A DNA stretch of 64,000 bases from a virus (Duplodnaviria > Caudoviricetes): IMG/VR virus record IMGVR_UViG_2588253903_000005, positions 1 to 64,000 of that record, one strand, 5' to 3'. This document shows, piece after piece, positions 18,316-57,908 of the stretch. Within the stretch, counting starts at the first letter, position 1; each line of letters opens with the position of its first letter. The translations under genes were made by a program, and so were the position numbers. Below the pieces are notes generated by a model. That model was not told where the DNA came from. It saw only the letters and a list, made by a program, of their open reading frames with translations, and did not search any database.

Positions 18316-18377
18316 GATGGAATTGTAGAGGGAAACTTGAAACCCGGAGGTCATGACGCTACCATGGCTTTCGGGTT
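18316..18377 (+). ncRNA. Structured leader element, copy 1
   Basis: 23 nt identical to 57843, then AACCCGGAG...TTCGGGTT stem with GACGCTA loop and U tract; promoter TTGACA at 18249. Confidence 0.65.
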
Positions 18378-18411
18378 ATTTTTATTTTTAGGCAGATTGG
18401 AGGTGTAGGGC

Positions 18412-19008
18412 GTGGAGCGGACGGACGAATACATACAGACTATCGCGAGTGTGGAGGATATGCCAGCAGTAGCTAAAGACATAGTATCTATGTACTGCAA
18501 AGAGAATGGTATTGACGAGAAAGATATATTCCCGTCTGTCTGGAATGATATTATAGATGAGCTGTATATTAAATTATTTAAACCCTGTAATAGATTATTA
18601 AAGACTGATAGTAATAAATATAACGAGTATGATAAAGAAAAGGTATTATATATATATAATAATATATACAGGAGATTGTGTAATAATCATTGCCAGGAGG
18701 TTTGTCAGAAGGGATTTATAGACATGATTGGGATAGATAAGCAGACGCTGTATAATTGGGCAAGCTCTGCAAGTTTCGACTTGCAAGAAAAAATCATGGA
18801 GGATAACGAGCAGTCTCTATTCGCCTTGATGAAAGACAGGCGAATGAACCCCATGAAGATGCTGCCCAAACTCAACCGCTATCATGGCTGGAACATGCCT
18901 GGAGCAAGAGGGGAGACGGACAAGAAAAAGGTTCTGACCGCTACGGAACTGCCAAAACTGGGCGGCGGTGAGGCTAAAGGGATAGATGTTGTGGTGGACG
19001 GGGAGTGA
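18412..19008 (+). CDS. Putative terminase small subunit / DNA-packaging protein
   Basis: Central HTH (IGIDKQTLYNW) and C-terminal KLNRYHGW motif reminiscent of gp3-like TerS; GTG start. Confidence 0.5.
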   Translation: MERTDEYIQTIASVEDMPAVAKDIVSMYCKENGIDEKDIFPSVWNDIIDELYIKLFKPCNRLLKTDSNKYNEYDKEKVLYIYNNIYRRLCNNHCQEVCQKGFIDMIGIDKQTLYNWASSASFDLQEKIMEDNEQSLFALMKDRRMNPMKMLPKLNRYHGWNMPGARGETDKKKVLTATELPKLGGGEAKGIDVVVDGE

Positions 19009-19430
19009 TACACAATATGTGGTGATTATGCGCTAATGAGGATATGATTAAATTTAAAATCATACGCATAAAGCTTTAAAGTAAAAATGCACAAAGGATT
19101 TTTAGGGGTAGATGCCTGATAAAAGGCGGCGTGGGGGTTTGTATGGAACGCCGCCGACCGCCTACTAAGCACTGTAAACTCCCGAAAAATCAAAAAGACC
19201 GCCCACTAAGGGCAGCCCTAAAAATTATTTTTTAAATAAAAAAAAGGGGTTACAAATATTATTATAAACCCATGCCGAACATTGATAATTACATACCTGT
19301 GTACTTGGATACAAGACGCAGGGAGGCGGCGACCCTAGGCATACTCTGGAATCGTAGCGGTTCGCCAGGTTGCAAATTGGTATGAGTTCTCGTAAGACCA
19401 ATCCCGTTTTTGGGGCAGGGAAAGGGGCGT

Positions 19431-19673
19431 CTACTCTGCGCCGCCCCTTTTAACAGCATCCCCCATCGTGAAAGTAAGTTTTGTATCTGTCTTGTACTCA
19501 ATCGTGAGATTGCATCCCATGAAGTCCAGAACAGAGATTAAGTCTTGAACAGACCAGCTATCCCTTTTGAACTTGGTATTGAGATTTTGTGGTCTCATTC
19601 CTAAATATTCAGCAAGCTCAACAGCTTTTATATTTTTTTCTTTCATGATTTGCTTTATTTTATCACTAATCAT
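19431..19673 (-). CDS. XRE-family HTH regulator
   Basis: IKQIMKEKNIKAVELAEYLGMRPQNLNTK; divergent from an antirepressor. Confidence 0.8.
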   Translation of the reverse strand: MISDKIKQIMKEKNIKAVELAEYLGMRPQNLNTKFKRDSWSVQDLISVLDFMGCNLTIEYKTDTKLTFTMGDAVKRGGAE

Positions 19674-19743
19674 GCGAATACCTCCTTTTTGGGTATTATA
19701 ATTCAAAATTCATTAAAAAGTCAATAAAAATAATTCAAAACGG

Positions 19744-19772
19744 TTGACTTATAATTGAAAATGAGTTATAAT
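19744..19772 (+). promoter_or_regulatory. sigmaA promoter
   Basis: TTGACT-17-TATAAT. Confidence 0.75.
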
Positions 19773-19805
19773 AAAACAAAAAATAATTCATGTGGAGGTA
19801 AAATC

Positions 19806-20654
19806 ATGAACGAAGTAAAAATGTTTGAAAACGAAGAAATCGGAATATTTGTAAGGACAGTACTGAATGATGACGGCAGTATTTCTGTCAACGCAGAAGA
19901 TACAGCCATTGGCCTTGGATGGGTTGACACATCACAAAGAGCCGCAGATGGCTCTCCGCTGGTTAAGGTCAGATGGGCGAGAATGAATGGATATTGTGAA
20001 GAATTTGGATTCACCAACAAACTGGGGAAAGATGATTACATCCCAGAAAGCCTGTTTTACATGCTTGCTATGAAAGCCAGTAATGCAAAGGCGGTTAGGT
20101 TTCAACAGTGGATTGCAATGAAAGTTGTACCATCTATTCGCAAGAACGGTTCGTACTCCTTGCAACAGAGGATTCCAGATTCATACACAATCGAAAATCC
20201 GGTTGAACGTGCTAAACGTTGGATTGAAGAGCAGGAGGAACACAATGAGCAGATTGCCGAGAAGGACAAGGTGATTGCTGAAAAAGACGAGAAGATAGCG
20301 GAGTTAGAACCGGACGCTGATTGTTTTAGAAAATTGTGCGACACACGTTCTCTGATATGCTTCCGTGATGCAGCTAACCTTCTGGGGATGAGCCAGACGC
20401 AGTTCACGGGTTATCTGGTGAGAGAGAAATATATTTACAAGAAGGGAAAAGAGGATTACAGACCGACCGAGCCGTATCGGAAAAGTGATTTGTTCAGAAC
20501 AAAATCTTATGTCAATCGCAACAGTGGATATTCTGGAATACAGACATGCCTGACGCCAAAAGGGTTACAGTATTTCAAACTGGCATTTGAAGCGCAAGGC
20601 ATCTTCCCAGACGCACTTCCAAAACACGGCGGCAGGAACACAAAGAAAAAGTAA
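19806..20654 (+). CDS. Antirepressor (BRO-like N-terminus, KilAC/ANT C-terminus)
   Basis: FENEEIG...YIPESLFYMLAMKA...FQQWI; LTPKG C-terminal motif. Confidence 0.8.
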   Translation: MNEVKMFENEEIGIFVRTVLNDDGSISVNAEDTAIGLGWVDTSQRAADGSPLVKVRWARMNGYCEEFGFTNKLGKDDYIPESLFYMLAMKASNAKAVRFQQWIAMKVVPSIRKNGSYSLQQRIPDSYTIENPVERAKRWIEEQEEHNEQIAEKDKVIAEKDEKIAELEPDADCFRKLCDTRSLICFRDAANLLGMSQTQFTGYLVREKYIYKKGKEDYRPTEPYRKSDLFRTKSYVNRNSGYSGIQTCLTPKGLQYFKLAFEAQGIFPDALPKHGGRNTKKK

Positions 20655-20680
20655 GATGCAAAAGACGGAGGAATTTGAAC

Positions 20681-21475
20681 ATGGCTACATACGCATATTA
20701 CAGAGTGTCAACAAGAACACAGGTAGAGAAGAACAGTACGGACATGCAGAAGAACGTCGTAAAGGAATATTGCGAAGAAAACGGTCTGGTGCTTGACGGA
20801 ACATTTGAAGATGACGGAATATCCGGCGCAATGGACGATATGGAGGATAGCATAGCGAGAAATGGTCTGATAGAACTTTTCTCAACCACACAAGAGGGTG
20901 ACACAATCATTGTGCAGAACACATCAAGGTTGTGGCGTTCTGATACGGCAAAGGTCATTATCCGTAGGGAAATTAAAAAGTGTGGGGCAAACTTAGTAAG
21001 TGTTGAACAGCCTAATTATGACATTTACAAGAAAGACCCTAACGACTTTCTAATAAACGGTCTTTTGGAGCTGCTTGACGAATACGACAAAATCTCAATC
21101 GCTGTCAAACTGGCAAAAGGCAGAAAGGCAAGAGCAAAGACAGGAAACAAACCTTGCGGTAATGCTCCGATAGGCTACCGCTGGAACGGAAACAAGATCG
21201 AAATTGACTATAACAATCACTTGATTGTACAGGATATATTCAATATGTGTTTAGAACGCAAAGGGAATTTAAGTCAGATTATGCGTGACTGTGCAGAAAA
21301 GGGATATAAGACCACTAGAGGAAAAGATTTCAGCGTACAGGCTATCAAGAATATTCTGACGAATGATTTTTATGTTGGTGTTGTAACCCATGCAGGAAAT
21401 AAGATAGCAGGAGAACATCAACCGATTATTGAAAAGCCGGTATTTGAAAAAGTCATTGAGATTTTGAGAGGGTAG
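20681..21475 (+). CDS. Serine recombinase (resolvase plus recombinase domain)
   Basis: YAYYRVST, DDGISG, QNTSRLWRS, PIGY, ILTNDFYVG. Confidence 0.9.
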   Translation: MATYAYYRVSTRTQVEKNSTDMQKNVVKEYCEENGLVLDGTFEDDGISGAMDDMEDSIARNGLIELFSTTQEGDTIIVQNTSRLWRSDTAKVIIRREIKKCGANLVSVEQPNYDIYKKDPNDFLINGLLELLDEYDKISIAVKLAKGRKARAKTGNKPCGNAPIGYRWNGNKIEIDYNNHLIVQDIFNMCLERKGNLSQIMRDCAEKGYKTTRGKDFSVQAIKNILTNDFYVGVVTHAGNKIAGEHQPIIEKPVFEKVIEILRG

Positions 21476-21484
21476 GTATACGGT

Positions 21485-21841
21485 ATGGTTTATGGGTATG
21501 TGAATAGGCGCAAAGGCGAAACAAAAGATTATTTACATGGCAGAGAATTTGACGAAATATTTTATCAAGACGGAGCAGAATACGATTTGTCTTTTCTGAA
21601 ACAAGGAGACACAATAATACTTTGCAAGCTAAAAAGTATAAGCGATAATTTGAAAGATATTCTCGTATTTGCTCAATACGCATTTGACAACGAGATAGAA
21701 GTCCGCTGTATGGATAAAAACGATGACAAATATATTGATTTCATAGATACAAGTACAGCAATGGGGAAATTGATAATAGGTCTATGGGCAGGAATAAATA
21801 GGCTAGACGATGAATACTACAGAAATTCAGAAAATAATTAA
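21485..21841 (+). CDS. Resolvase N-terminal-like protein lacking the catalytic serine
   Basis: YGYVNRR in place of YxRVS; retains LKQGDTIILCKL and IDTSTAMGKLI. Confidence 0.6.
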   Translation: MVYGYVNRRKGETKDYLHGREFDEIFYQDGAEYDLSFLKQGDTIILCKLKSISDNLKDILVFAQYAFDNEIEVRCMDKNDDKYIDFIDTSTAMGKLIIGLWAGINRLDDEYYRNSENN

Positions 21842-21993
21842 ATTTCTACAAAAGATAAAATCTCAACCCACTCCCGATTAAATCAATCAAAATGCCAAAG
21901 ATACCAACAACAAAATCAAATATAAGGCGGTGCATACACTTGTTCTGGAAAAAGAAAGAAATTCAGAAAAACGAAAAAGAGAATGAAACCGAA

Positions 21994-22335
21994 ATGAAGA
22001 AAGATTATCTCTATTGCGAAATTCCGATTTTGAAAAGAAAAACAAGACATGCAAAAACCATCATAGAAAATAAGCTGTATGATACCGAAAAAGCAGAAAT
22101 TATTTCCTCAACGGCAGATTGCAGGATTTTGTTTGTGACGAAAAAGGGAAATTATTTTTCTTGCAAAACAACAGATTATGATTATATGGAGAACGAAGAA
22201 AATAAAACATATCACATTTTTGAAACTGTATACCATGACATACGACCGGAACTATTAGAATACGCAATGTCCAATATTGGAAAATATGAACCAGAGAAAT
22301 ACATTGAACTATATGGCGAAGTCGAAGAAGCGTAA
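21994..22335 (+). CDS. Hypothetical protein, paralog of 25066-25431
   Basis: Shared KLYDTEKAE...KKGNYFSC...GExEEA. Confidence 0.7.
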   Translation: MKKDYLYCEIPILKRKTRHAKTIIENKLYDTEKAEIISSTADCRILFVTKKGNYFSCKTTDYDYMENEENKTYHIFETVYHDIRPELLEYAMSNIGKYEPEKYIELYGEVEEA

Positions 22336-22377
22336 AGGCGTTGATTAAGATACCAGTCCGCAAATCAAAGAGGGGAT

Positions 22378-22764
22378 ATAAGGAGGGAAATTAATGGTAA
22401 AATCATATCTGACGATTCATACAAAACACATGCATTTATTGATGATGTAGAAATAAGCGATAAAGCAACCAGTGTTCATTTTGAACAAAACGCTGGTGAA
22501 GTACCGATTTTCACATTTGAAACGGTAAATCTGCCAAACATAGAAATCGAAAATGCAAATATTCGTTTCAGATTCACGACGGAAACAATAGAGGATTCTA
22601 TGAAGGTTATTCGTCATAGTTTATTGACAGACAAAGTTTTATATGACGCCCTTGTTGCAAGCATAGAAAGTGCAATTTACGAAAATGGCGTGGTGCGTGA
22701 CATATCAGACCAACACGAACTTGCTTTGGAGATTGCGGATAGGATTATTGAGAGGGAAGAATGA
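22378..22764 (+). CDS. Hypothetical protein with probable ATA start (absent from ORF track)
   Basis: 128-codon open frame after GAGGGG; fills the gap between neighbours. Confidence 0.55.
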   Translation: MRREINGKIISDDSYKTHAFIDDVEISDKATSVHFEQNAGEVPIFTFETVNLPNIEIENANIRFRFTTETIEDSMKVIRHSLLTDKVLYDALVASIESAIYENGVVRDISDQHELALEIADRIIEREE

Positions 22765-22765
22765 A

Positions 22766-22930
22766 ATGAAAGTAAGAGTAACAATTATGACAGAGAACGA
22801 TAAGCCCATTTCTGTTTTGGGTGAAAATCCAGAAGAAAAAATAAAGATAGGATGGGAACTTGTGCTTGCTTTATTAAATGCTCAAAGCGAAGATAGGGCA
22901 ACGCTTGAAAGAGTAGAAATTGTTGAATAA
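22766..22930 (+). CDS. Small hypothetical protein
   Basis: Coupled ORF. Confidence 0.5.
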   Translation: MKVRVTIMTENDKPISVLGENPEEKIKIGWELVLALLNAQSEDRATLERVEIVE

Positions 22931-22935
22931 ATTTT

Positions 22936-23007
22936 AGGGATATCGCCAAACGGTAAGGCACAGGACTTTGACTGCTGTATTTCCGGGTTCGAATCCCGGT
23001 AGCCCAG
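22936..23007 (+). tRNA. tRNA-Gln(UUG), with stem mismatches
   Basis: CT-TTG-AC loop, GGTTCGAATCC T-arm; mismatches in acceptor and anticodon stems; no encoded CCA. Confidence 0.75.
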
Positions 23008-23055
23008 TTCAGCCGAAAGGCTATATAAAAATTAAAGTTTAGGAGGGATTTGTCT

Positions 23056-23697
23056 ATGACGACTGAAACCATGACCGTGCATAAGGCTCTGGCAGAATTA
23101 AAGCTGCTTGACATCCGGATTGAGAAAGCAATCGCAGAAGGTGTTTACTGCGTTGCGAACAAACATTCAAACGATAAGATAGGCGGCGTTCCGCTTGATG
23201 ATTACATTAAAATCATGCAGGGCGGATATGACAAGGCAACTGACTTTATCAACCGTCAAACGGCAATAAAACGAGCAGTCACACTTTCCAATGCTGTAAC
23301 CAAAGTCGAAATTTCTGGCGTGGAATATACAAGAGCAGAAGCCATTTGGATGAAAAATCACGGAATGGAATTTTGCAAAACACTTATGAATGCTATGCGG
23401 AGACAATATGATAAGGCTCAAATGCAAATCAATCTGGAAAACGGAAAAGACCTTGAACAGAGGGCAGAGCAGTATGTAACCGCAATCTACGGGCAGAAAG
23501 AAGGAAAGACAAATACTGCTGACATCGAAAAGGTCAAGGCAGACTTTTTAAAATCCAACCAGTACGAACTGGTTGACCCGCTCCACGTCCTTGACAAGAT
23601 TGAAGATTTGGAGAAGAAAATCAATGATTTCATGGCAGAAGTTGACAGCTCATTATCGGTCAGCAACGCCTTAACCGAAATCACGATTGAATATTAA
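23056..23697 (+). CDS. Coiled-coil protein, probable partner of the downstream ncRNA
   Basis: TVHKALAELKLLDIRI; SNA(V/L)T motif twice; VDPL; from memory loosely like DIP1984/DUF6847 proteins (unverified). Confidence 0.85.
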   Translation: MTTETMTVHKALAELKLLDIRIEKAIAEGVYCVANKHSNDKIGGVPLDDYIKIMQGGYDKATDFINRQTAIKRAVTLSNAVTKVEISGVEYTRAEAIWMKNHGMEFCKTLMNAMRRQYDKAQMQINLENGKDLEQRAEQYVTAIYGQKEGKTNTADIEKVKADFLKSNQYELVDPLHVLDKIEDLEKKINDFMAEVDSSLSVSNALTEITIEY

Positions 23698-23715
23698 AAA
23701 TTAAATGAATTTTAT

Positions 23716-24107
23716 CCACTGTTTACCGAAAACCCCAAACTACAATTCATACGTCTTTTGCAGATACAGACATATGTAAAACAATAAAGAAATCTGCAAA
23801 CTTCAATGGACGAAGATAATATGAATTGGTCTTGAAAACCAAATTTGCATAAACAATGTGTCGGCGGTTCGATTCCGTCCAAGTCTTCGGACTTGTAGCT
23901 CAGTCGGGAGAGCGATTGTAAAAACAAAACGCACTGTAAAGATTAAAGAGTAAAGCTCAAATCTTAAAGCTGAAAGGTCAAAGTTTATTTTCTTCAAAGT
24001 TGAAAGAGCAAAGGTAAAAGACAAAAGTTTTACAAAATCCTTGGGAAATGTTTATTCGGGCTAATTGTAATTGCTGATGGGTTTAACACAAGGCTGGTAA
24101 ATGGTGG
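23716..24107 (+). ncRNA. ~390-nt structured ncRNA with permuted tRNA module, anticodon-arm mimic and heptamer array
   Basis: 13-bp 5'/3' helix (23716-23728 with 24095-24107), nested AAACCC/GGGTTT and TACAATT/AATTGTA helices; no coding ORF on +. Confidence 0.85.
23937..24029 (+). repeat. 12 tandem heptamers, consensus NAAAGNN (7 + 5, split by a 9-nt U-rich linker)
   Basis: TAAAGAT TAAAGAG TAAAGCT CAAATCT TAAAGCT GAAAGGT CAAAGTT [TATTTTCTT] CAAAGTT GAAAGAG CAAAGGT AAAAGAC AAAAGTT. Confidence 0.9.
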
Positions 24108-25775: not shown

Positions 25776-25848
25776 AACAACGGGATAGCCCGACGGGGCG
25801 AAAAGCAAAACCGTGATTGCCTGTCCGTTGTTTCAACTAATATCACGG
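25776..25848 (+). ncRNA. Candidate pseudoknotted RNA
   Basis: Long stem 25776-25788/25821-25832; loop CCGTGAT complementary to ATCACGG at 25842. Confidence 0.45.
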
Positions 25849-26487: not shown

Positions 26488-26538
26488 CAATAGGCTAGGG
26501 TAGCTCCCAAAAAGCGTCCTCCAACGCCTGCCTATTGT
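26488..26538 (+). promoter_or_regulatory. Three-way-junction leader upstream of the replication initiator
   Basis: CAATAGGC/GCCTATTG, GGG-TAGCT-CCC and GCGT-CCTCCA-ACGC helices. Confidence 0.45.
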
Positions 26539-26583
26539 TTTTATAAATTTGGAGGATTAGAAAAATGGATTGGAGGTCATTTT

Positions 26584-34918: not shown

Positions 34919-35371
34919 ATGGAAGATAATATCAACTGGAAAAGTTACTATCAACAAGAACCGATAGAACCTGATATATATTTCAAATTTGTTTGTTTTT
35001 ATCAAGCAATGACTGAATTATACGATAGGGAATTAACGGATGAAAGAAGTCCTTACGATAAAACAGAAGCATTTATTTCAGAAAATATAAGGGGAATCTG
35101 CGAAGCGTATTCGCAAAACTTATATGATTGCATTAGAGAATACATTTGGAGAAAAACAAAAGTTCCGTTTGATATTGAGCGGTGGAGAAAAGAAACTAGA
35201 CAAAGATATTCAGCTCAAGGATGGATAGACTTGTTTGAACATTTCAGAAAAGAAAAAGATGAAATCATTTTAGATATGATTGAAAATATATGGGAATATG
35301 GAAGAATAAGAAAAGATGATGAACAAAGGAAATATATTATTATAAAAAATCCATTTCTGGAAACAAAATAA
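34919..35371 (+). CDS. Hypothetical protein
   Basis: 150 aa ORF. Confidence 0.65.
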   Translation: MEDNINWKSYYQQEPIEPDIYFKFVCFYQAMTELYDRELTDERSPYDKTEAFISENIRGICEAYSQNLYDCIREYIWRKTKVPFDIERWRKETRQRYSAQGWIDLFEHFRKEKDEIILDMIENIWEYGRIRKDDEQRKYIIIKNPFLETK

Positions 35372-35456
35372 ATATCTAAGGCATGAGAGAAGGGTTCTCG
35401 TGTGTCAGCTAAAGCGTAGCTTACTTTTATTCGAAGGGAGGTTACGCTTTTCTTTT

Positions 35457-37181
35457 ATGGCAAGTCAAGAATTACTCAAAGAAATTTCCAATGCAGAAAA
35501 ATACATAGAAAGGCATGGAGTAGATATTGACGCTGTTAATGCGTTCCATACGTATGTCTTCTGGGCAGATGAAGAAGATAAGGACATAGAAACCGCCCTA
35601 AAAATATCACCAAGGGCAAAAGAACTGATGAACCAGTATGTCATAAACGGTGCTGGCGGCGACATATGGGAACTTGAAAAATTCTGCTTTGCCAACAAGA
35701 CAGGGCATGAAATGGTGGACAAGTGGTATGAGATATTGAAGTTGGAGGCTCCATATAAGTTTGAGAGTTATCTTTTGTATCTTGAAAAGAAAAGAGAGAT
35801 AAGCGAGCGGTTCTATTCACCGAAAAGAAAACAGTTAAATAAGCATGGGCTTATACAAGCAATGCAAGATTTGGAAGATGATAAGTACGATAGAATTTGC
35901 ATATCCATGCCGCCTGGTACGCAAAAAACTACTCTCGAAAAATTTTTCTGTTCATGGATAATTGGAAAATACCCAAAGGACTACAGCCTTTTCTTTTCTC
36001 ATAACAGCGACATAACAGAGAAATATTATAAGGGCGTACTTGACATTACAACAGACAACCTTGAATATACATGGTCTGAAATTTTTCCAGACGTGAAATT
36101 ACAAAGCACAAATGCAAAGTTGCAGGAGATAAATTTTGGAAAGTACAAGCCGTATTCAAGTATTCAGTGTTCTTCTATCGGTTCTAAAAATGCCGGAAAA
36201 GTAAGGACAAACCGTTATCTATATTGTGATGACCTAATAGGAACCATTGAGGAAGCTCTAAACCCGACTATCCTTGATAAAATTTGGAGGATATATGGCG
36301 TTGACCTAAAACAAAGAAAACTTAATCAACAAGTAAAAGAAGTAATCATTATGACACGCTGGTCTACAAAAGATGTTGTCGGACGAATTATCGAACTGTA
36401 TGGAAGTAGCGATAGAACAAAGATAATTTCCGTAGAAGACATAGATCCGATTACGGGCAAAAGCAACTTTGATTATGAGTACAACGGAATGACGGTTGAG
36501 TTTTTTAACGACCAAGCCCTTACAATGGATGATATTTCTTATAGGTGTCTGTATAAGCAACAGCCTATTGAGCGTGAAGGTTTGCTGTTTCCAGAAGGAA
36601 AGGTTATGCGATATGACGATGAAGAAATTAAAAAACTTAGAGAGAAACCGCCAGAACTTATTACAGGACAGTGCGATACCAAAGGAAAAGGAACAGATTT
36701 TTTTGTTTTACCATGCTTTGAAAAGTATGGAGATTACTATTACTGTACCGATTGCGTGTGTGATAATTCCCCAGATTATGAATTGCAGTATGAAAATTCT
36801 GCAAATCTGATTGTTGACAACGAAATGCAGGATTGTGTGTTTGAGAGCAACAATGGAGGCGACAGGGTAGCAGAAGAAGTGCAAAAACGAGTGGAAGAAA
36901 AGGGATGGATATGCAATATAACATCAGTGCCAACGGAATCAAACAAAGAGGCCAGGATTTATCAGTGCTCAAATTGGATATTGCAACACGTCAAATTTAA
37001 GGACAAGTCAATGTATGCGCCAAAAAGCCAATACGGAGTGATGATGGCGCAGTTGCTTAGTTATTCTGTATCTGGGAAAAACATAAATGATGACGTTGCC
37101 GATGTATTTGCTACATTTGCATTGAGAATAAAAAAAGGAAATGGAAGAAGGAAAACAATCATAATGCCAAGCCCAATCTAA
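35457..37181 (+). CDS. terL: Terminase large subunit
   Basis: ISMPPGTQKTT Walker A, YCDD Walker B, IMTRW coupling motif, nuclease DTKGKGTD...DDVAD. Confidence 0.93.
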   Translation: MASQELLKEISNAEKYIERHGVDIDAVNAFHTYVFWADEEDKDIETALKISPRAKELMNQYVINGAGGDIWELEKFCFANKTGHEMVDKWYEILKLEAPYKFESYLLYLEKKREISERFYSPKRKQLNKHGLIQAMQDLEDDKYDRICISMPPGTQKTTLEKFFCSWIIGKYPKDYSLFFSHNSDITEKYYKGVLDITTDNLEYTWSEIFPDVKLQSTNAKLQEINFGKYKPYSSIQCSSIGSKNAGKVRTNRYLYCDDLIGTIEEALNPTILDKIWRIYGVDLKQRKLNQQVKEVIIMTRWSTKDVVGRIIELYGSSDRTKIISVEDIDPITGKSNFDYEYNGMTVEFFNDQALTMDDISYRCLYKQQPIEREGLLFPEGKVMRYDDEEIKKLREKPPELITGQCDTKGKGTDFFVLPCFEKYGDYYYCTDCVCDNSPDYELQYENSANLIVDNEMQDCVFESNNGGDRVAEEVQKRVEEKGWICNITSVPTESNKEARIYQCSNWILQHVKFKDKSMYAPKSQYGVMMAQLLSYSVSGKNINDDVADVFATFALRIKKGNGRRKTIIMPSPI

Positions 37182-37195: not shown

Positions 37196-37630
37196 ATGGT
37201 AAGCAAGGAAATTTTGATACAGTATTCAGATTTGCAGGAAGAAATAAAGGAAGTCCGACAAAGAATAGAGCAGACGGAACGACAGATTGAACGAATTGAA
37301 AGCGAAAAGACCGTATGTGACAAGGTTAGGGGAGGAGAGGGTGGCTTGCAATCATTTAAAATTGAAGGTTTCCCATATCCAGAATACAGCCGAAAAAAAA
37401 CATTGCTATATTCAAGAAAGGCAACGTTGACAAGCCTTGAAATGGAGCTTCTTGAAACACTGAACAAAGTAGAGGAATTTATTGCAAGCATTTCTGACAG
37501 CCGTATGAGAAGGATTATCAATCTGCGGTTCATTGAAAATCTTTCATGGAATAAAGTAGCTGACCGAATTGGCGGAGGGAATACCGAGGATAGTATCAGA
37601 ATGGCTTTTAACAGATTTATGGAAAAATAA
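37196..37630 (+). CDS. Late transcriptional activator (ArpU/RinA/DUF1492-like)
   Basis: Coiled coil then RIINLRFIENLSWNKVADRIGG HTH. Confidence 0.75.
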   Translation: MVSKEILIQYSDLQEEIKEVRQRIEQTERQIERIESEKTVCDKVRGGEGGLQSFKIEGFPYPEYSRKKTLLYSRKATLTSLEMELLETLNKVEEFIASISDSRMRRIINLRFIENLSWNKVADRIGGGNTEDSIRMAFNRFMEK

Positions 37631-41063: not shown

Positions 41064-41227
41064 AACTAAATATTTTCAGCAATTAAGCACATGGAGAAAT
41101 CCGTGTGCTTTTATTTTGCGCTAGGGACAGCGCAATACAAGTTTCGCAAAACGATAGGGAAATCGAAAATCGCAAACCCAAAAATATTGTGAGGGAACAC
41201 ATTAAAACGCAGAAAGAGGTAAGAAGA

Positions 41228-46386: not shown

Positions 46387-46920
46387 ATGGCAAAGAAAAC
46401 CCTTAAAGCCGACCTGTCTATTTCGTCAATCCGTAATCTCCAAAAGGAATTGGAAAAATACCGCAACAGTCTAACCTACAAAGCCAGACTGCTTGCAGAA
46501 AAACTTAGCGAGCGCGGCGTAGAAATCGCCAGAGTGCAGATAGCCGACCTCGACGCAATCTTTACGGGCGAACTGATACAGAGCTTGCACAGCGAGTACA
46601 AGGCAAGTATGCCATACGGGGCGATATTTGCGGTAGTTACAGACTCCAAGCACTGTGCCTTTGTTGAGTTCGGCACAGGACAACGTGGCGAGGACAAACC
46701 ATACCCCTATCCTCTTCCAGAGGGTGTAAGCTGGGATTACAATGTCGGAAAGACGATAAGACAGAACGCAACCACGGGAAGATATTACTGGTTTTATCCG
46801 GGGCAGGACGGGAAATGGCATTATACAGAGGGAATGCCGTCTCGTCCTTTTATGTACCTTACAAGCATGGAACTGATAAGGGAAGTTCCGAAGATAGCTA
46901 AAGAAGTATTCGGGAAGTGA
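46387..46920 (+). CDS. Tail completion protein (HK97 gp10-like)
   Basis: FVEFGTG...GMPSRPFM. Confidence 0.8.
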   Translation: MAKKTLKADLSISSIRNLQKELEKYRNSLTYKARLLAEKLSERGVEIARVQIADLDAIFTGELIQSLHSEYKASMPYGAIFAVVTDSKHCAFVEFGTGQRGEDKPYPYPLPEGVSWDYNVGKTIRQNATTGRYYWFYPGQDGKWHYTEGMPSRPFMYLTSMELIREVPKIAKEVFGK

Positions 46921-46976
46921 GAGGGGATCCTCTCTTTTTTAATTTAACAAAATAAATCATCAGGAGGCATGAATTT

Positions 46977-47657
46977 ATGTTAGTAGAAATCATTGGAAAA
47001 AGAAACGAAGAAAGGCTTATCACTACAAGCCTTAAAATTGCTGAAAAGTTCGGTAAGGAACATGCCCATGTCCTTAGAGATATTCGGGATATGGAATGTA
47101 GCGATATGTTTAGAGAATCCAATTTTGGATTGTCCTCTTATAAGTCTGCACAAGGCAAGACATTGCCAATGTATGAAGTGACAAGGGATGGGTTCACCTT
47201 GCTGGCTATGGGATATACCGGAAAAGAAGCAATGAAGTTCAAAGAGGACTACATCAATGCGTTTAACGCAATGGAAAACGAATTAAAACGCATTTACACC
47301 GAGCGTCAACAATGGAAGATAGAGCGTGACAAAGGCGTTGTTATTCGTCACATCCTCACAGACACAATCAAGATGAAGATTGCAGACAGCCCACACAAGC
47401 GGTTCGCATATCCAAATTATACAAATCTGATTTACCGAACTTTGTTTGGAAAAACTGCAAAAGAACTTGAACAGGAATGTGGCGTAAAGGCGAGAGAAAA
47501 TTTAAGGGATTATTTTACCGGGAATGCCTTGGCACAGGTACAGAGCATGGAAATGCTGGTTTCAAGCCTTATCGGGTGTGGCTGGGGATATGAAAAAATA
47601 AAAGAATTTGTGTCTGAAAACTGCAAATATAAGATTGAGGAGGAAAATCATGGTTAA
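46977..47657 (+). CDS. Rha family regulator
   Basis: TTSLKIAEKFGKEHAHVLRDI...MYEVTRDGFTLLAMGYTGKEA. Confidence 0.9.
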   Translation: MLVEIIGKRNEERLITTSLKIAEKFGKEHAHVLRDIRDMECSDMFRESNFGLSSYKSAQGKTLPMYEVTRDGFTLLAMGYTGKEAMKFKEDYINAFNAMENELKRIYTERQQWKIERDKGVVIRHILTDTIKMKIADSPHKRFAYPNYTNLIYRTLFGKTAKELEQECGVKARENLRDYFTGNALAQVQSMEMLVSSLIGCGWGYEKIKEFVSENCKYKIEEENHG

Positions 47658-50767: not shown

Positions 50768-50805
50768 CAAGGACAGCATGGGTTCAAATCCTGCTGTCTT
50801 TTTCT
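50768..50805 (+). terminator. Intrinsic terminator
   Basis: AAGGACAGCA...TGCTGTCTT plus T run. Confidence 0.65.
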
Positions 50806-50815
50806 TTGAAAGGAA

Positions 50816-53800
50816 GTGGCAAGAATGGCAACGATAGACAGATTGGATATACAAATAGAAGGTTCTGCACAAAAAGCAAATGTCGCAATAAATGACCTTA
50901 TAAAAAATCTCGACAGACTTGCCAATTCCTTAAAAATAGACACAAGCGGATTAGAGAAAATCGGAAAATCTTTGAATTTAAGTGGCATTGATAAGGCTGC
51001 TAAAAATATGCAATCCCAAACGCAGAAAGTATCAAAATCCCTGTCTCAAATTACGGAGCAGTACAAGGATTTGGGCAAAGGATTTGAAATAAAAGGCTCT
51101 ACGCAACAGATACAGAAGCAAATTGACAGCCTTACAAACAAACTTGCAAATGCAAAACTGGCGAAAGATGATTTTGAAGCGTCCGGGAAGGCCAATTTAG
51201 GTGGTTACGAAACAGCAGTTAAAAATGTAATAAAGTATACAAACCAGATTGAAAGCCTGAAAAAGCAACTTGAGGGATTGCAGACAGCACAGCCGAAACT
51301 TGATTTCAATGTAGCTGGCGCGGAAAGCCAAACAAAATATCTAGTTGAATACAAAAAGCAATTAATAGATTTCAAAAATGATATGAAATCCATAGGTGAT
51401 GTTTATGGCGGGTTGCAGAATGTTCCAAAAGGAGGACTAGATACTCTAATTCAAAATTTAAAGCAATCCATAGAAGAATTAAAGCAATCCTACCCGCAGG
51501 CAACGAATGTTATTTCCGCATTTGAAAAAGAGTTGCAAAAGCTACAAGGTATTTCTTCTGGACTGACAAAAGAACCAATTAGAGCCAATATTGATACAAG
51601 CTCTATTGACAAAGTAAGTGAAAAAATAGCAGAGCTAAAAAACAGGTTTGAAAAAGTTGGATCAGATTTTAAGTTTACCGGGAATTTTGAACAGTTAAAT
51701 ATTGAAATAGAAAAAGTTTATTCCAAGCTGAACGAATTAAGAACCAAAGAACAGGAAATGATTTCTGCCGGACAGGTAAATACATCTGGATTTGAACAGT
51801 TGCAGGAATCACTTGCAAGAGTTGGAAATAAGTTCGGAATAATGCAGGATTTAAGGGACAGAACAGAAGCATTTAACCAATCCTTGCAACAATTAAGAGT
51901 TCCAGAAATCCGAGAAGAAAATCTTACAAAACTTCAAAATTCCTTAAGAAAAACAGAAGCAGACACAGAAAAGCTAAGAACAAAACTTTCTAATGCAATA
52001 ACAATGGGAAGGATTGTTCCAAACATAGACGACAGCGGATTCCGAAAACTTACGGAGCAAATTGCGTTATCAGAAAAACAGGCAGAAGCATTAAGGCAGA
52101 AAATACAGGAAGTGGGAGGCGATACAAGCGGAACCGGAAGCATAATGGACAGGCTGAAATCTTCTCTGTCAAATGTTTCGAGCCAGTCAAGCAAAACATC
52201 TTCTGCGACAAACATATTATCAAAAAATATAAAAAACCTTTCCTCAACAATGAGCGGATTCAGCAAGTCAGCAGGAAAAGCGGTCACAGGGCTGAAATCA
52301 TTCGCAAGACAAGCATTGTCTGCTATGGGGATATATCTTGGGGTTTATGGGGCGGTAAGGGGGCTTAAATCATCGTTAGAAAGCTCCATGAATTACATAG
52401 AAATCCTTAATTATTTCAATGCCGCATTTGGACAGGTGGCAGAAAAGGCAGATTACAGTAAGTTTGAAGAAATGGGATATGATTCAGCAGAAGCATATTA
52501 CAATTCTTTTTCTGAAAGGGCAAAAGAATTAACAGAAAAAATGTCCGGGTTTACAATGAACGAAAGCGGGATGTTGGAATCCGGAGGAATGAAAAGCCTT
52601 GGAATTGACCCTACGAAACTTATGAACTATCAGGCGATGTTTGGGCAGATGTCTAGCTCTATGGGAGCGACAAGCGAAAATGCATTAAGGCTGTCAACAG
52701 TCCTTACGGAAATTGGGGCTGACCTGGCTTCTGTAAAGAACATGAAGTTTGAAAAAGTCTGGAACGATATGGCTTCCGGGCTTGCGGGAATGAGCCGGAC
52801 ACTGGATAAGTATGGGGCAAATATCCGAAACGTGAACTTGCAGCAGAAGTTAAACGAACTTGGAATCAGTGCAAACATATCCGCATTAAACCAGAATGAC
52901 AAGGCTCTTTTACGTACAATTATTCTTCTTGACAGTACGAGATATGCATGGGGTGATTTGGCAAAAACAATCAATCAACCTGCTAACCAGTTAAGGTTGC
53001 TCCAATCAAATTTCAGCAACCTTGGGAGGGCTATAGGAAACATATTTTTGCCAATCGTTGCAAAGGTTTTACCATACATAAATATGCTTGTGCAGGCATT
53101 GACGAGGCTTGCAGAATGGCTTGTAAAACTCCTTGGATTCGAGGGATTCGACTGGGGAGGTGGCGGGGGCGGAAACTCTACCCCGGATATACTTGGTGAC
53201 ATATACGACAATGCAGAGGATGCATCTGGCGCATTGGATAAAGTATCTGAATCCGCAAAAAAAGCGAAGGCAGGTCTTAGGGGATTTGATGAGTTAAAAA
53301 CAATCAACATGCCAGAATCCAATGAACCAGACGATGGAGCAGGGGGAGCGGGAACTGGAGGAATTGACAGCGGACTTCTGCAAGGAGCATTAGATAGCAT
53401 ACTGGACGAATATCAGGCGGCATGGGACAAGGCTTTTTCCGAAATGGAAAACAGGGCTAATACATTCGCTGATAACGTGGCGAAAGCGTTTAAAGAAAAA
53501 GGTCTCTATGGTGTTGGGGAATATTTCAGTAAAAGCATAACAAGCGCATTGGAGAGCATACCCTGGGATTCTGTATATGAGGGAGCAAGAATGTTTGGAA
53601 GCGGTTTAGCTTCCTTTTTAAATGGGTTGATTTCCCCGGATCTGTTCGGTGCACTTGGGAAAACGATTGCAGGCGCGTTGAACACAGCGTTGCATTTCCT
53701 TGATTCATTTGGGGAAACATTTGATTTTACCAATTTCGGCGTTTCCATAGGAGCCGGGATAAATTCTGCATTAGGAGGGATTGACTGGAAAACCGCGCTT

Positions 53801-56800
53801 TCAGCGGCTAAGAAATGGGGTACTGGAATTGGAAACGCTATCAATGGATTTTTCAGAAAAACGGATTTTTCCACCGTTGGAAGCACGTTGGCAAATGCCT
53901 TAAACACTGCGATACAGCTTGCACTATCATCAGGGAAAAAGATAGATTTTGAGTTAATAGGAAAGAAAATTTCAGACGGAATCAATGGATTTTTCAAGAC
54001 GTTCAGGGCTGATAAATTAGCGAAAGCCATAAATGTTTGGATGAAGGGCGCGCTGAAAACAGTTTCTACATTACTAAAGAAAACGGATTTTGATATGATT
54101 GGGAAGAAAATAGGAAAATTCCTTGCAGAACTTGATTTGACAGGAGCATTGAAAGGGCTGGCGAGCGTTGTATGGGAGGCGATAAAGGGAGCGTTTAACT
54201 TATTATCGGGAATTTTTAAATCCGCACCAATTGAAGCGTCTTTGCTTGTTGCATTTTCGTTCCTGAAATTTACAAAGGTTGGGCAGATTTTTACTTCCAA
54301 TCTTTTTTCTATTTTAAAAGGCGGGGCAACACAATCTTTAAATAAGTTTGCAAGTTTCTTCAATGGGGGATTGCTTGGAGTTATCGGAACAGCGGTAGCA
54401 GCATTTGCAGAATTTAGCGTTGTTTCTGATTCAATAGAGAATTTAACGCTCGGAACAGGAGATTTTATAGCAGAAATAGGTAAAATAGCAGGGGTTGTAG
54501 GGATTGCTTGGGCAGGAATGTCCGCTATACTTGGATTCCCAGCAGGAACCATAGCTACTGCAATTGTTGGTATAGTAGGAGCGATAAAAGGGATAAGCGA
54601 TGCATTTAAGGATATAAAAGCTGAATCCGCAATGCAATCAATAGCGAACGCATTGAAAAAACCAGGTGGAACACCGATTGAAGATTTGACAGAGTTGTAT
54701 TCGGATACAATTGGAAAAATAAAAAGCGGATTTGATGACATAAATGTAAAGTCAGAAGAACTTAAAACAACACAGACTAATGCAGAAAAAACAAGCAAAA
54801 AAATTGACCTCATAAAGTTTTCGATAGAAAACGGCTCAAAGGCTACGAAAGAAAAAACAACAGAAATAAAACAGGCGTTCGACAGTCTATTAAGCGATTC
54901 AAAAAGCATTTTTGAACAAGAATACGACGTTATCATGACGGGAATATCTGGTTCGTTGCAGCAATCGTTGACGGATGCTGGATATTCTGTTGAGCAGATT
55001 GTCGGAGTGATGGATTCGCTAAAAACGGAACATCAGAAAGAGATAGAGGAAATAGAGAAAAATAACGAGAAGTTGAAAACCAGTTTTGAAAATGGGAAAA
55101 TTTCTATCCAAGAGTATGCTGCAAAAATGCTAGAAAATTACGAAAAACTGGGCGAGATAACGGGAAAGACAGACGAGTATTCATCTGCCATTGAAAAGGT
55201 ATCAGAGGCGGCGAAAGGCGTTGACTTAAGCGGAATAGTAAACAAAGACAATACAATTAACACAGGTCTTTTAGCAGAACAGTTCAAGGGGTTAAGCACA
55301 ACCGCTACCGAGGCTAAGCAATCAATAAACGATTCATCTGCGGGGTTAACTGCGGCACTAAATGATTATGCAAAAGAAGCAGAAAGAACCAAAAATTCAG
55401 AAGCCGCAACAGCGATTAGCGATATGCTATCAGCAGAAGAAGCGAATGTGAAATCAGCAACGGAAAGTGTAAACAATCAGTTAACAGAATACGGAAACCA
55501 AGTACAATATGCAGTTTTGGAAAAAATTCCAAGCGTGGTAGACGAAGCGGTTGCAGATTATGAGAACAAAAGCCCTATATACAAATTCTTTAATTCAGAA
55601 GAAAGCCATGTGCAATCCGCATTAGAGGAATACCAAAAAAATGTAATAGACCCGTCTACGGAAGAATTAGAACGTTTATATTCGGAAGCAGGAATTGAGG
55701 GGGCTACTTTTTCCTCTAATGCTGGGAAAGAAATAATAGATGCAATGTTTGATGAAAACATAGTGTCAAGCGGGGAGCTTACCTACTATTCAAAGACATT
55801 GAAAAGCAATTATACAAAAGTAGTTAATAATGCTGTTGATGAAATAAAGAAGGATGCTAAGAAAAAATCTAAGCAAATAGGAAAAAATGTAGATGAAGGT
55901 ACGAGGGATGGAGTAAACGAAAACCTTGGACTTGCAACTGGAGCAATAGGCGGCATGGCAAACCAAATGCTTAGAAAGGCAAGGGAAACCCTTGGAGTGC
56001 ATAGCCCATCTACAAAATTTAAAGAAATCGGTGGATATGTCGTAGAAGGAATGAAGGGAGGGATTTCTGGAAAATGGGGAGAATTCAGCGAGTTTTGGGC
56101 AAAGAAGCATGATTACATTATAAATAAATTTAATGGAATAAAAGAAAAATTCGGGACAAAAGGAAAGGATATAATATCAGGAATCCGGTCTGGAATATCT
56201 GATAAATGGAACGATTTCAGTACGTTTTGGGGAGAAAAGAAAAGTAGTATCATAGATAAATTCAATGATATAAAAGAAAAATTTAATACAAAAGGTGGAA
56301 ATATAATTTCTGGCATAAGGTCTGGCATATCTGGGAAATGGGGTGAATTTAATTCTTATTGGACAGAAAGAAAAAATTCTATAGTAGAGAAGTTTAAAAA
56401 TATCAAAGAATCATTCCAGGGAAAGGGTGGCGATATTATATCTGGGCTAAAAAGCGGTATTTCCAGTAACTGGGATGGTTTTGTTGGATGGTGGGCAGAA
56501 AAAATCAAGGCAATGGTGAATGGGATACTGGATGGAATAAACTGGGTTCTTAAAAAAGTTGGCTCTAGTACACAGCTAGACCCATGGGAGCCAAAAGGAT
56601 TTGCAAAAGGAGCCAACGGACTTCCGCAAGACACCATAGGAATCGTAAACGACCAGAAAGGAAGCACATACAAAGAACTTATCGTGCCGCCACATGGAAA
56701 GCCATTCATCCCAGAGGGCAGGAATGTCATGCTTCCCATGAAAAAAGGGACAAAAATCATGCCAGCCCGCCAGACGAAGGACTTCATGGAGAAAATGAAC

Positions 56801-57766
56801 AATATGCCGCATTTTGCCGGAGGTATTGGTGATTTCTTTAAAGGTGCATGGGCAAAGATATCAGAGTTTACCGGGAATATCTGGGACTACATTTCAAACC
56901 CAGGGAAGATTTTGCAGATTGCATTTGACAAATTCACGGATTTATCCGGGATGCTTGAACCCGTGCTTTCCATAGCTACAGGGGCTGCAAAAACGCTTCT
57001 GGATGGCGCAACAGGTTTTATAAAGAAAATGTTCGACGAAAACCTTACGGTGCAGTATAACCCGTCCCAAGGAGTGGAACAGTGGCGCGGTCTTGCGACA
57101 AAGGCGTTGCAGATTACAAACCAGTTCACAGCACCAAACTTAACCGCCTTGCTAACACAAATGCAGCATGAATCCAGTGGAAATCCAAAGGCAATCAATC
57201 TATGGGATTCTAATGCAAAGAAGGGAACCCCATCCAAAGGACTTATGCAGGTCATTGACCCGACGTTCCGGGCGTATGCATTAGCACCACACAATAAAGA
57301 TATATGGGACCCGCTTTCAAACATGATTGCGGCCATCCGGTACACAGTATCGCATTATGGCAGCTTATATTCCGGATGGACTGCGAGAGGATATAAAGGT
57401 TATGCCTCTGGAATAGGAAAAATAAACCTTGCAGACCTGATACCAAAATACAGGGCAGGCGGGTTCCCGGAAGATGGATTGTTCTATGCAAACCATACAG
57501 AACTTGTTGGAAGATTCAGTAACGGACAGACAGCAGTAGCGAATAACGGGCAGATTACGCAGGGGATTGCAGAAGCAATATACCCAGCGGTATACAATGC
57601 GGTTTCTTCTGCAATGAGAAATAATGGAACATCTGGAAGTGTGGACATATCTCTACAATTAAACCTGGACGGGGATGCAGTTTATAAAAATGTTGTGAAA
57701 CGGACAAGGGAAGGGAGGGATAGGAATATAGGTGGTAGACTTGTTCTTGCGGAAGAGGTTTATTAA
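50816..57766 (+). CDS. Tape measure protein with C-terminal lytic transglycosylase (SLT) domain
   Basis: 2316 aa; Trp-periodic 40-aa repeats; QHESSGNPKAINLWDSNAKKGTPSKGLMQ. Confidence 0.93.
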   Translation: MARMATIDRLDIQIEGSAQKANVAINDLIKNLDRLANSLKIDTSGLEKIGKSLNLSGIDKAAKNMQSQTQKVSKSLSQITEQYKDLGKGFEIKGSTQQIQKQIDSLTNKLANAKLAKDDFEASGKANLGGYETAVKNVIKYTNQIESLKKQLEGLQTAQPKLDFNVAGAESQTKYLVEYKKQLIDFKNDMKSIGDVYGGLQNVPKGGLDTLIQNLKQSIEELKQSYPQATNVISAFEKELQKLQGISSGLTKEPIRANIDTSSIDKVSEKIAELKNRFEKVGSDFKFTGNFEQLNIEIEKVYSKLNELRTKEQEMISAGQVNTSGFEQLQESLARVGNKFGIMQDLRDRTEAFNQSLQQLRVPEIREENLTKLQNSLRKTEADTEKLRTKLSNAITMGRIVPNIDDSGFRKLTEQIALSEKQAEALRQKIQEVGGDTSGTGSIMDRLKSSLSNVSSQSSKTSSATNILSKNIKNLSSTMSGFSKSAGKAVTGLKSFARQALSAMGIYLGVYGAVRGLKSSLESSMNYIEILNYFNAAFGQVAEKADYSKFEEMGYDSAEAYYNSFSERAKELTEKMSGFTMNESGMLESGGMKSLGIDPTKLMNYQAMFGQMSSSMGATSENALRLSTVLTEIGADLASVKNMKFEKVWNDMASGLAGMSRTLDKYGANIRNVNLQQKLNELGISANISALNQNDKALLRTIILLDSTRYAWGDLAKTINQPANQLRLLQSNFSNLGRAIGNIFLPIVAKVLPYINMLVQALTRLAEWLVKLLGFEGFDWGGGGGGNSTPDILGDIYDNAEDASGALDKVSESAKKAKAGLRGFDELKTINMPESNEPDDGAGGAGTGGIDSGLLQGALDSILDEYQAAWDKAFSEMENRANTFADNVAKAFKEKGLYGVGEYFSKSITSALESIPWDSVYEGARMFGSGLASFLNGLISPDLFGALGKTIAGALNTALHFLDSFGETFDFTNFGVSIGAGINSALGGIDWKTALSAAKKWGTGIGNAINGFFRKTDFSTVGSTLANALNTAIQLALSSGKKIDFELIGKKISDGINGFFKTFRADKLAKAINVWMKGALKTVSTLLKKTDFDMIGKKIGKFLAELDLTGALKGLASVVWEAIKGAFNLLSGIFKSAPIEASLLVAFSFLKFTKVGQIFTSNLFSILKGGATQSLNKFASFFNGGLLGVIGTAVAAFAEFSVVSDSIENLTLGTGDFIAEIGKIAGVVGIAWAGMSAILGFPAGTIATAIVGIVGAIKGISDAFKDIKAESAMQSIANALKKPGGTPIEDLTELYSDTIGKIKSGFDDINVKSEELKTTQTNAEKTSKKIDLIKFSIENGSKATKEKTTEIKQAFDSLLSDSKSIFEQEYDVIMTGISGSLQQSLTDAGYSVEQIVGVMDSLKTEHQKEIEEIEKNNEKLKTSFENGKISIQEYAAKMLENYEKLGEITGKTDEYSSAIEKVSEAAKGVDLSGIVNKDNTINTGLLAEQFKGLSTTATEAKQSINDSSAGLTAALNDYAKEAERTKNSEAATAISDMLSAEEANVKSATESVNNQLTEYGNQVQYAVLEKIPSVVDEAVADYENKSPIYKFFNSEESHVQSALEEYQKNVIDPSTEELERLYSEAGIEGATFSSNAGKEIIDAMFDENIVSSGELTYYSKTLKSNYTKVVNNAVDEIKKDAKKKSKQIGKNVDEGTRDGVNENLGLATGAIGGMANQMLRKARETLGVHSPSTKFKEIGGYVVEGMKGGISGKWGEFSEFWAKKHDYIINKFNGIKEKFGTKGKDIISGIRSGISDKWNDFSTFWGEKKSSIIDKFNDIKEKFNTKGGNIISGIRSGISGKWGEFNSYWTERKNSIVEKFKNIKESFQGKGGDIISGLKSGISSNWDGFVGWWAEKIKAMVNGILDGINWVLKKVGSSTQLDPWEPKGFAKGANGLPQDTIGIVNDQKGSTYKELIVPPHGKPFIPEGRNVMLPMKKGTKIMPARQTKDFMEKMNNMPHFAGGIGDFFKGAWAKISEFTGNIWDYISNPGKILQIAFDKFTDLSGMLEPVLSIATGAAKTLLDGATGFIKKMFDENLTVQYNPSQGVEQWRGLATKALQITNQFTAPNLTALLTQMQHESSGNPKAINLWDSNAKKGTPSKGLMQVIDPTFRAYALAPHNKDIWDPLSNMIAAIRYTVSHYGSLYSGWTARGYKGYASGIGKINLADLIPKYRAGGFPEDGLFYANHTELVGRFSNGQTAVANNGQITQGIAEAIYPAVYNAVSSAMRNNGTSGSVDISLQLNLDGDAVYKNVVKRTREGRDRNIGGRLVLAEEVY

Positions 57767-57842
57767 ATACAGAAGAAAACAAGATTGACATTTCATGTAG
57801 ATTGTGGTAGATTGAATAAAATTTGATACGCTATTACAAACT

Positions 57843-57908
57843 GATGGAATTGTAGAGGGAAACTTGGAACCCGGAGAGTCTGGACGCTATGCCAGATTTC
57901 TTCGGGTT
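57843..57908 (+). ncRNA. Structured leader element, copy 2
   Basis: Homolog of 18316-18377; promoter TTGACA at 57785. Confidence 0.65.

Follow-up and report, generated by a model that had tools for sequence, protein, structure and literature searches.

A duplicated promoter-leader-terminator cassette in a mouse-gut Lachnospiraceae phage and its tentative reading as a conditional terminator

In phage lambda, the strong promoter PR' runs into the nearby intrinsic terminator tR' at the head of a long operon. A short RNA (6S RNA) is the default product and the operon, which has internal terminators downstream, needs read-through; the protein Q binds the promoter DNA at a fixed position (qut) and needs a sigma-dependent pause. 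From PR'-tR' of Stx phages comes StxS, a short RNA that acts in trans (PMC7547250). The nutL and nutR sites used by lambda N are present in two copies per genome, each past a promoter and each a linear element followed by a hairpin with a covarying stem and a conserved loop. AlpA of Pseudomonas aeruginosa, a small regulator whose site lies between the -35 and -10, makes polymerase bypass terminators just past two target promoters (PMC7969949). Cis RNAs past a promoter that give terminator read-through are further represented by putL and putR of HK022, which have a two-hairpin fold, and by conAn2 of pLS20-type plasmids, an RNA of about 300 nt with a partner protein (PMC8191782). At the ribonucleic antiterminator (RAT) sites of BglG, SacY and LicT, and likewise for PyrR, TRAP and ANTAR, a recognition sequence shares bases with the 5' arm of an intrinsic terminator, and binding decides whether the terminator forms. 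Here we describe a cassette that resembles each of these in part. It is found twice in the first 64 kb (64,000 nucleotides, the window in what follows) of the 75.6-kb IMG/VR provirus record IMGVR_UViG_2588253903_000005 (G000; 82% complete), which represents a mouse-gut Lachnospiraceae phage; the public runs containing this phage are mouse-gut samples. By analogy of layout, the cassette would work like lambda PR'-tR', nut or a RAT-type attenuator, and it fits none of them in full. We read it, with a little less than an even chance of being right, as an antitermination or attenuation site, that is, a conditional terminator read by a factor.

The 24-mer GATGGAATTGTAGAGGGAAACTTG occurs exactly twice in the window, at 18316-18339 and 57843-57866, both on the + strand. 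Allowing 3 or fewer mismatches adds no further site in the window, and 100 shuffles gave none. An earlier note on this DNA had claimed a duplicated leader element here, with a TTGACA promoter before both copies and a U tract and then a gene after each hairpin, and all of this is found. In copy 1, the promoter (18247-18275, + strand, as is all that follows) has TTGACA, a 17-nt spacer and a TG-extended TATGGT (18270), with a predicted start at about 18282. A variable 5' leader (18282-18315), U-rich immediately before the block, precedes the invariant block (18316-18339, predicted to be single-stranded) and a terminator hairpin (18341-18377) of 15 bp and -21.9 kcal/mol with the loop ACGCTAC at 18356-18362. 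The U tract (18378-18389) gives a predicted RNA of about 105 nt. The ribosome binding site (RBS; GGAGG, 18399-18403) starts 10 nt past the U tract and belongs to a 198-aa open reading frame (ORF) with a GTG start at 18412, RBS and gene together covering 18399-19008; this TerS-like ORF (18412-19008) has a weak GP3_package match, and its relatives are annotated as DNA-packaging protein. Copy 2 begins 19 nt downstream of the tape-measure stop with a promoter (57785-57813) of TTGACA, a 17-nt spacer and a TG-extended TAGATT (57808), predicted to start at about 57820, and continues through the block (57843-57866) into a terminator hairpin (57868-57908; 16 bp, one bulge, -22.8 kcal/mol, loop ACGCTATG at 57884-57891) and a U tract (57909-57919), for a predicted RNA of about 98 nt. 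Its RBS lies about 50 nt past the U tract and precedes a Bro-N (antirepressor-like) gene (57970-58680 with the RBS; ATG at 57982). The variable leader between promoter and block is about 24-35 nt, and the gap between the 24-mer and the hairpin is 1 nt in copy 1 and 2 nt in copy 2. Hairpins of -18 to -24 kcal/mol, a CCC/GGG base and a U-rich tail of 5-11 nt are present in all nine copies, relatives included, and each cassette hairpin with its U tract is an intrinsic terminator.

Relatives were gathered by pattern scans and two covariance models. We found seven further close copies (L001 = L002, from the complete 108.9-kb phage G001; L003, from G002; L069 and L071, which are Lachnospiraceae metagenome-assembled genomes; L086; and the plasmid-like contig L094) and a diverged cassette type in L104, L177, L179 and L180; all are in gut Lachnospiraceae phages, prophages or the plasmid-like contig. 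The motif is rare. It was present in 1 of 151 sampled Lachnospiraceae genomes (G004), besides two false terminator matches, and had no match in the GenBank phage collection; a 16-mer scan returned 55 chance matches besides the known copies, and a search with the TerS-like protein across 401 Lachnospiraceae genomes gave no match. In Rfam 15 nothing reached gathering thresholds at either copy, the best sub-threshold matches (snoR27 and carA, E>0.5) being at chance level, in line with the earlier statement that the leader is not a recognised family. The cassette is a real, conserved and uncatalogued sequence family that is conserved at the RNA level.

Conservation within the cassette is unequal. 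Across the eight close copies, 21/21 block positions and 8/8 positions of the lower 5' arm (AACCCGGA) are invariant, compared with 3/8 and 2/9 columns of the inner stem and 0/5 of the 5' flank, and the tail is variable. Between copy 1 and copy 2, the block and 5' arm are identical at 33/34 positions, the upstream promoter and leader region at 34/86 and the rest at 28/45, which in sequence terms is the pattern of selective conservation and not of recent duplication. The inner stem comes in five versions, all of which pair. In the nine homologues, 4 of 15 pairs are changed on both sides and 92.6% of the cells pair, and the covariation score was reached by 0 of 500 shuffles and by no slid register, so the earlier observation that the inner stems differ and still pair is borne out. 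The G-U pairs of the stem would be A-C mismatches on the opposite strand, which assigns the hairpin structure to the + strand RNA. Drift in the lower stem is all in the 3' arm (G-C to G-U) and six wobble-neutral changes open to the 5' arm are unused; the 5' arm therefore seems to be constrained beyond pairing, and we infer that it is read as sequence and not merely as a pairing partner. The CGCT loop is kept in all copies. Distances are less strict: 29, 34 or 40 nt separate the -10 from the block, and the linker from block to hairpin is 4-5 nt, or 9-10 nt in the diverged L104 type, which retains AUUG, GAGGGA, CCCGGAGG, the hairpin top and the U tract and in which 4-5 additional nt separate GAGGGA from the stem. 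The block has two natural variants, GGAATCGTA from a CRISPR spacer and GGAAACGTA from a metagenomic contig, which differ only in the TT dinucleotide.

Some other ways of reading the leader were tried and set aside. Pairing of block GUAG with loop CUAY as a pseudoknot fails in L003 and L104, and for an extracytoplasmic-function (ECF)-type promoter (AAC...CGCT) the spacer of 13-14 nt is too short. The block holds a three-codon ORF, AUG GAA UUG UAG (18318-18329 and 57845-57856), of which block variants alter only the third codon (UCG, ACG) and for which the aligned stretch in L104 is AUU AAA CAU UGA; it has no Shine-Dalgarno sequence, and we treat it as probably a coincidence. An ORF started by UUG across the hairpin is absent in L002 and L071.

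The cassette is also portable. It is conserved from about 20 nt 5' of the -35 to the RBS and start codon, the promoter with those 20 nt being conserved in L002, L003, L069, L086 and L184, and the gene behind it is swapped. That gene is a P22-gp3-like TerS relative in copy 1, L003, L069 and L086; a different TerS type in L002; a RinA/sigma-r4-like regulator heading structural genes in L071; a 61-aa Xre helix-turn-helix protein in L094, on a contig with ParA, Phd/YoeB and a Rep-like gene; BRO in copy 2; and Rha in the diverged type. Copy 2 and the diverged type occupy equivalent positions, each beginning no more than a few bases from the tape-measure stop, and the 3' end of the tape-measure gene is alignable between the copy 2 phage and the diverged-type phages. 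The slot after the tape-measure stop recurrently holds a promoter, leader and terminator with an antirepressor-like gene, which is BRO here (57766-58680) and, in four further phages or prophages, Rha (L177:7020-7960; L104, reverse strand, about 600-1640).

What was observed, namely the anatomy, the unequal conservation, the hairpin at the RNA level, the portability and the genomic positions, can be put together in the following way. A strong sigma-A promoter, probably constitutive, would fire, and polymerase would transcribe 24-35 nt of variable leader and then the invariant purine-rich block, which is continuous with the 5' arm of the terminator. By default the transcript would end at the U tract as an RNA of about 100 nt, which may be a by-product or a second product of the switch. 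During lytic growth, a factor (a phage or host protein, or possibly polymerase itself) would recognise block and 5' arm in the nascent RNA and would either prevent formation of the hairpin or render polymerase resistant to the terminator. Read-through at copy 1 would lead into the TerS-like gene and a long rightward operon, and at copy 2 it would reach the BRO gene and, past it, the tail genes. Conditional termination, recognition of the block as RNA and a single factor acting at both copies are our inference, and several features support this account. The terminator lies between the sole nearby promoter and the gene, with the RBS 10 nt past the U tract, so that the gene would be transcribed only by read-through. 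TerS-type cassettes leave no room for a promoter between U tract and RBS, which makes an unconditional terminator untenable, and a terminator as stable as that of copy 2 (-22.8 kcal/mol) upstream of the tail genes would cut the late operon, so that termination there would have to be conditional. The variable distance from promoter to block, the linker that tolerates insertion and the block that runs into the 5' arm argue for recognition of the nascent RNA over a DNA site of the Q or AlpA type. The late region has further intergenic terminators on the + strand at 41085-41110, 46919-46936 and about 50770-50801, the last with its end 15 nt ahead of the tape-measure start, and promoter-like sites are not in excess in this region. 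These internal terminators favour a processive mechanism, in which polymerase is converted, over an attenuator in which the hairpin is blocked.

The earlier note had left a choice of attenuator, antiterminator site, riboswitch-like motif or small RNA (sRNA). Anatomy and comparison speak for the attenuator and the antiterminator site, given a strong promoter that leads straight to a strong terminator adjoining the RBS, an invariant block continuous with the 5' arm and the place of copy 2 in the late operon. The riboswitch option is unsupported, since the only helix is the terminator, there is no conserved alternative fold or pseudoknot and no Rfam match, and the genes downstream are regulators and packaging genes. 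An sRNA may coexist with the switch and is weighed below.

Several results weigh against a conditional terminator read by a common factor. No alternative (antiterminator) fold conserved among the copies was found. The families of Q (PF06530, PF03589) and AlpA (PF05930) are absent from the 75.6-kb record, 82% complete as stated, NusG paralogues and CAT_RBD (PF03123) are absent as well, and no arginine-rich N-like ORF with an RBS was found. Read-through does not account for the conserved CGCT loop. The family has nine distinct sequences, which makes the covariation statistics thin, and the RNA data are assembled contigs, which cannot show transcript ends. The TerS cassettes of G411 and G412, both complete phages, combine the same promoter and U tract-RBS arm with a different leader and hairpin (L184 type), and in these two phages the TerS leader and the post-tape-measure leader share no block; a common regulon would thus be limited to the present phage and perhaps G004. 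A contig depth peak at 18142-18409 is a pile-up of contigs from related phages sharing the leader and is uninformative on ends or levels. The search for a factor gave little else. BRO as the common factor was rejected as it is absent from the complete motif-bearing phage G001. A crude two-motif regular expression on the six-frame translation of the window, with no CsrA family model run, found no CsrA-like ORF, and there was no complementary trans RNA in the window, a 9-nt match to RAGATH-27 being at chance level. A sigma-r4/RinA-like regulator is encoded at 37196-37630. Comparison for a co-varying gene was not discriminating, G000 and G001 sharing most genes. It may be a host protein that operates the switch.

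The comparison with the described systems can now be made more exactly. The cassette shares with lambda PR'-tR' and StxS the strong promoter running into a nearby terminator at the head of a long phage operon, the short default RNA and the internal terminators further on. In contrast to the Q site, its conserved element lies within the transcript, at +24 to +58, abuts the terminator and is not at a constant distance from the promoter (29, 34 or 40 nt past the -10), and no gene of the Q families was found. AlpA is similar in the bypass of terminators just downstream of two promoters. Its site is part of the promoter, however, and there is no Phage_AlpA match in this phage, which has only a Xis-like HTH_17 beside the integrase. 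The nut sites resemble the cassette in copy number and in the order of linear element and hairpin; here the hairpin of 15-17 bp with its U tract is a terminator in its own right, the linear part lacks a boxA consensus, no arginine-rich protein like N was found, and the host is a Firmicute. With put the cassette has its two copies in common and with conAn its place on a Gram-positive mobile element, but its block is short and predicted to be unstructured. No fold is conserved upstream of the terminator that would place it with put-like or EAR-like multi-helix elements, since the minimum free energy folds of this part of the leader are weak (-8 to -15 kcal/mol) and differ between copies. The overlap of recognition sequence and 5' arm recalls the RAT sites, but the copies share no RAT-like alternative hairpin, no CAT_RBD protein (PF03123) is present, and the setting is a phage leader and not a sugar or nucleotide operon.

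Other explanations make different use of the same features. The short terminated RNA may be the purpose of the cassette, as a trans-acting sRNA of about 100 nt in which the block would serve as seed and the hairpin as terminator and stabiliser, with the downstream genes expressed by leak or from elsewhere. An own strong promoter, an unstructured conserved 5' segment and an intrinsic terminator are the classic architecture of such RNAs, two copies are in one genome and one is on the plasmid-like contig L094, and StxS, made from PR'-tR', is a precedent (PMC7547250). However, the search for targets in the phage gave only chance-level 9-11-mers, conservation does not stop at the U tract and takes in the RBS and start codon of the gene that follows, as is typical of a cis leader, and the 5' arm is invariant beyond the need for pairing. 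We consider this unlikely, and it can coexist with a switch. The invariance of the block could also be that of a DNA site for a phage activator or repressor, the hairpin being an insulating terminator with a regulated promoter nested in it: a -35-like TTGAAA or TTGGAA at the junction of block and hairpin, 17 nt, and a -10-like TAnnnT from the loop and the 3' inner arm, with transcripts that would start in the 3' arm and would not be terminated. A promoter scan flags TTGAAA-17-TACCAT at 18337-18365, TTGxAA is found in 6/9 copies and a TAnnnT-type hexamer at that spacing in 6/9, and the sigma-r4/RinA-like gene at 37196-37630 would supply a regulator. The main argument for this arrangement is that it would account for the conserved CGCTA(T) loop; it would also account for the fixed distance from block to hairpin. 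On the other hand, the -35-like hexamer is absent in the close copies L002 and L071 and in L104, in L104 the GAGGGA core is set off from the hairpin by 4-5 additional nt, which would break promoter phasing, the block is neither palindromic nor repeated, and the consensus promoter upstream, kept in every copy, would be left without purpose. A nested promoter therefore seems to us distinctly unlikely.

It is also conceivable that there is no dedicated regulation, and that a portable promoter with a leaky terminator sets low expression and insulates modules, conservation being that of a recombination linker. Conserved arms (promoter, and U tract-RBS) do flank swapped cargo, the leader core itself is swapped in L184/L185, and some terminator precedes the RBS in nearly all TerS relatives. 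A linker role would leave unexplained both the invariant block beside a changing stem and flanks and the compensatory changes in the stem, and we regard this account as quite improbable. Finally, the two copies are direct repeats with a core identical at 33/34 positions and could bound a 39.5-kb segment as attL/attR-like cores for recombination or attachment, or as packaging sites; a fragment of a serine recombinase gene is present at 20675-21841, and a location ahead of a TerS-like gene would suit a pac site. Relatives with a single copy, however, have both flanks of copy 1 contiguous, each copy retains its own promoter, compensated RNA hairpin and U tract, and unrelated TerS types and genes without a packaging role also follow the motif, which leaves very little probability for such a role.

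Copy 1, placed ahead of the packaging and lytic genes, heads a run of rightward co-oriented genes. The run has the TerS-like gene, an antirepressor, a recombinase fragment, tRNAs, a DnaD-like initiator (26584) and RtcB, and then TerL (35400), portal, scaffold, major head protein, an endolysin-like protein and a 2316-aa tape measure, all on the + strand. Copy 2 is inside the late operon, directly past the tape-measure gene and upstream of tail-fibre-like genes on the same strand (record 69445-74605). The TerS-like gene (18412-19008) sits 16 kb from TerL (34919-37181 region); between them are the antirepressor, a split serine recombinase, four tRNAs, RAGATH-27, the DnaD-like initiator, a Thy1-like fragment and RtcB. 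A 150-aa ORF without family match directly 5' of TerL may be the working small terminase. A Rha-like regulator gene (46977-47657), with the short terminator 46919-46936 before it, lies amid the structural genes, and its product has 48% identity to the Rha behind the diverged cassette of L104. On the opposite strand, a 449-aa transposase-like ORF (record 64655-66004; L169:655-2004, reverse strand) splits an island of accessory genes between the tape measure and the tail-fibre genes.

Just upstream of copy 1 are two ribbon-helix-helix (RHH)-like genes and a 370-bp AT-rich repeat field. The genes (16737-16949 and 17301-17813) encode paralogous small proteins (phrog_31631) with an RHH-like N-terminus (KNYDK..PKGT..RI) and C-termini CPF or LPF, and it is possible that they are regulators of the conserved promoter region. 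The field (17875-18250) is free of ORFs, opens with another TTGACA promoter (17875) and contains the perfect palindrome TATATACTGTATATA (17953) and several repeats of the CCAATACAGTA type. L002 and L094 have Rep-like winged helix-turn-helix genes just upstream, and relatives of phrog_31631 are upstream of the cassette in G001. They are also found (L012:468-698, ending GKCPFMD) in phages with an unrelated leader, which we call type B. In TerS relatives with type B leaders, the gene is likewise preceded by promoter, structured leader and terminator. This leader (L105-L112, about 250 to 30 nt 5' of the TerS match, e.g. L105:1290-1480) is uncatalogued; its hairpin has a covarying stem and a conserved loop GCGCCC that pairs with a downstream GGGCGC (pseudoknot-like, one compensated pair) and is followed by a terminator. 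BLAST found no second copy of it in five carrier phages.

Elsewhere in the window, Rfam identifies a pistol ribozyme, RAGATH-27, three int-alpA motifs and four tRNAs. The int-alpA motifs (RF02996) at 25778-25848, 26488-26555 and 58807-58871 are each just 5' of a gene, the third being 900 nt past copy 2 and preceding an ORF6N/ORF6C antirepressor, and this phage thus has several repeated cis RNA elements preceding accessory genes. The cassette is in addition matched by CRISPR spacers. Three CRISPR arrays of differing types target the block (L074:1421-7197, L089:3241-4336 and L092:86-712, reverse strand), two with I-C-like repeats and one with a Cas12a-type repeat; L074 is Lachnospiraceae bacterium 62-35. 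Four of the 86 spacers of its array (numbers 1, 5, 9 and 17) lie inside the leader of about 130 nt in differing phage variants, all on one strand and with GAA or GAG (TTC/CTC protospacer adjacent motif) adjacent, and a single spacer matches elsewhere in the window (6553); L089 additionally targets 43075. The cluster in L074 may be caused by priming. The spacers point to the host range and to the leader as the most conserved stretch of the phage group.

To our knowledge, there is hardly any work on how temperate phages of gut Clostridia control their late genes, and no antitermination system has been described for them. The cassette may be the cis half of a new antitermination system of Firmicute gut phages, which as a whole we regard as possible and rather doubtful. 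In such a system, a short single-stranded RNA word made up of AUUG..GAGGGA, the CCCGGA of the 5' arm and the CGCU loop would be read by a new RNA-binding protein or by polymerase; the leader core, set between the conserved arms with promoter and RBS, would be a replaceable module that confers specificity, by analogy with the nut/N specificities of lambdoid phages; and the RNA of about 100 nt could be a regulatory RNA in lysogens. The cassette is small, sharply defined and portable, which makes it a clean test of terminator read-through in such phages, and the invariant block is a bait for the factor. As the most conserved nucleotide stretch of the phage group and a repeated target of host CRISPR arrays, it is useful in linking phages to hosts, and it may possibly provide a compact regulatory part for Lachnospiraceae genetics.

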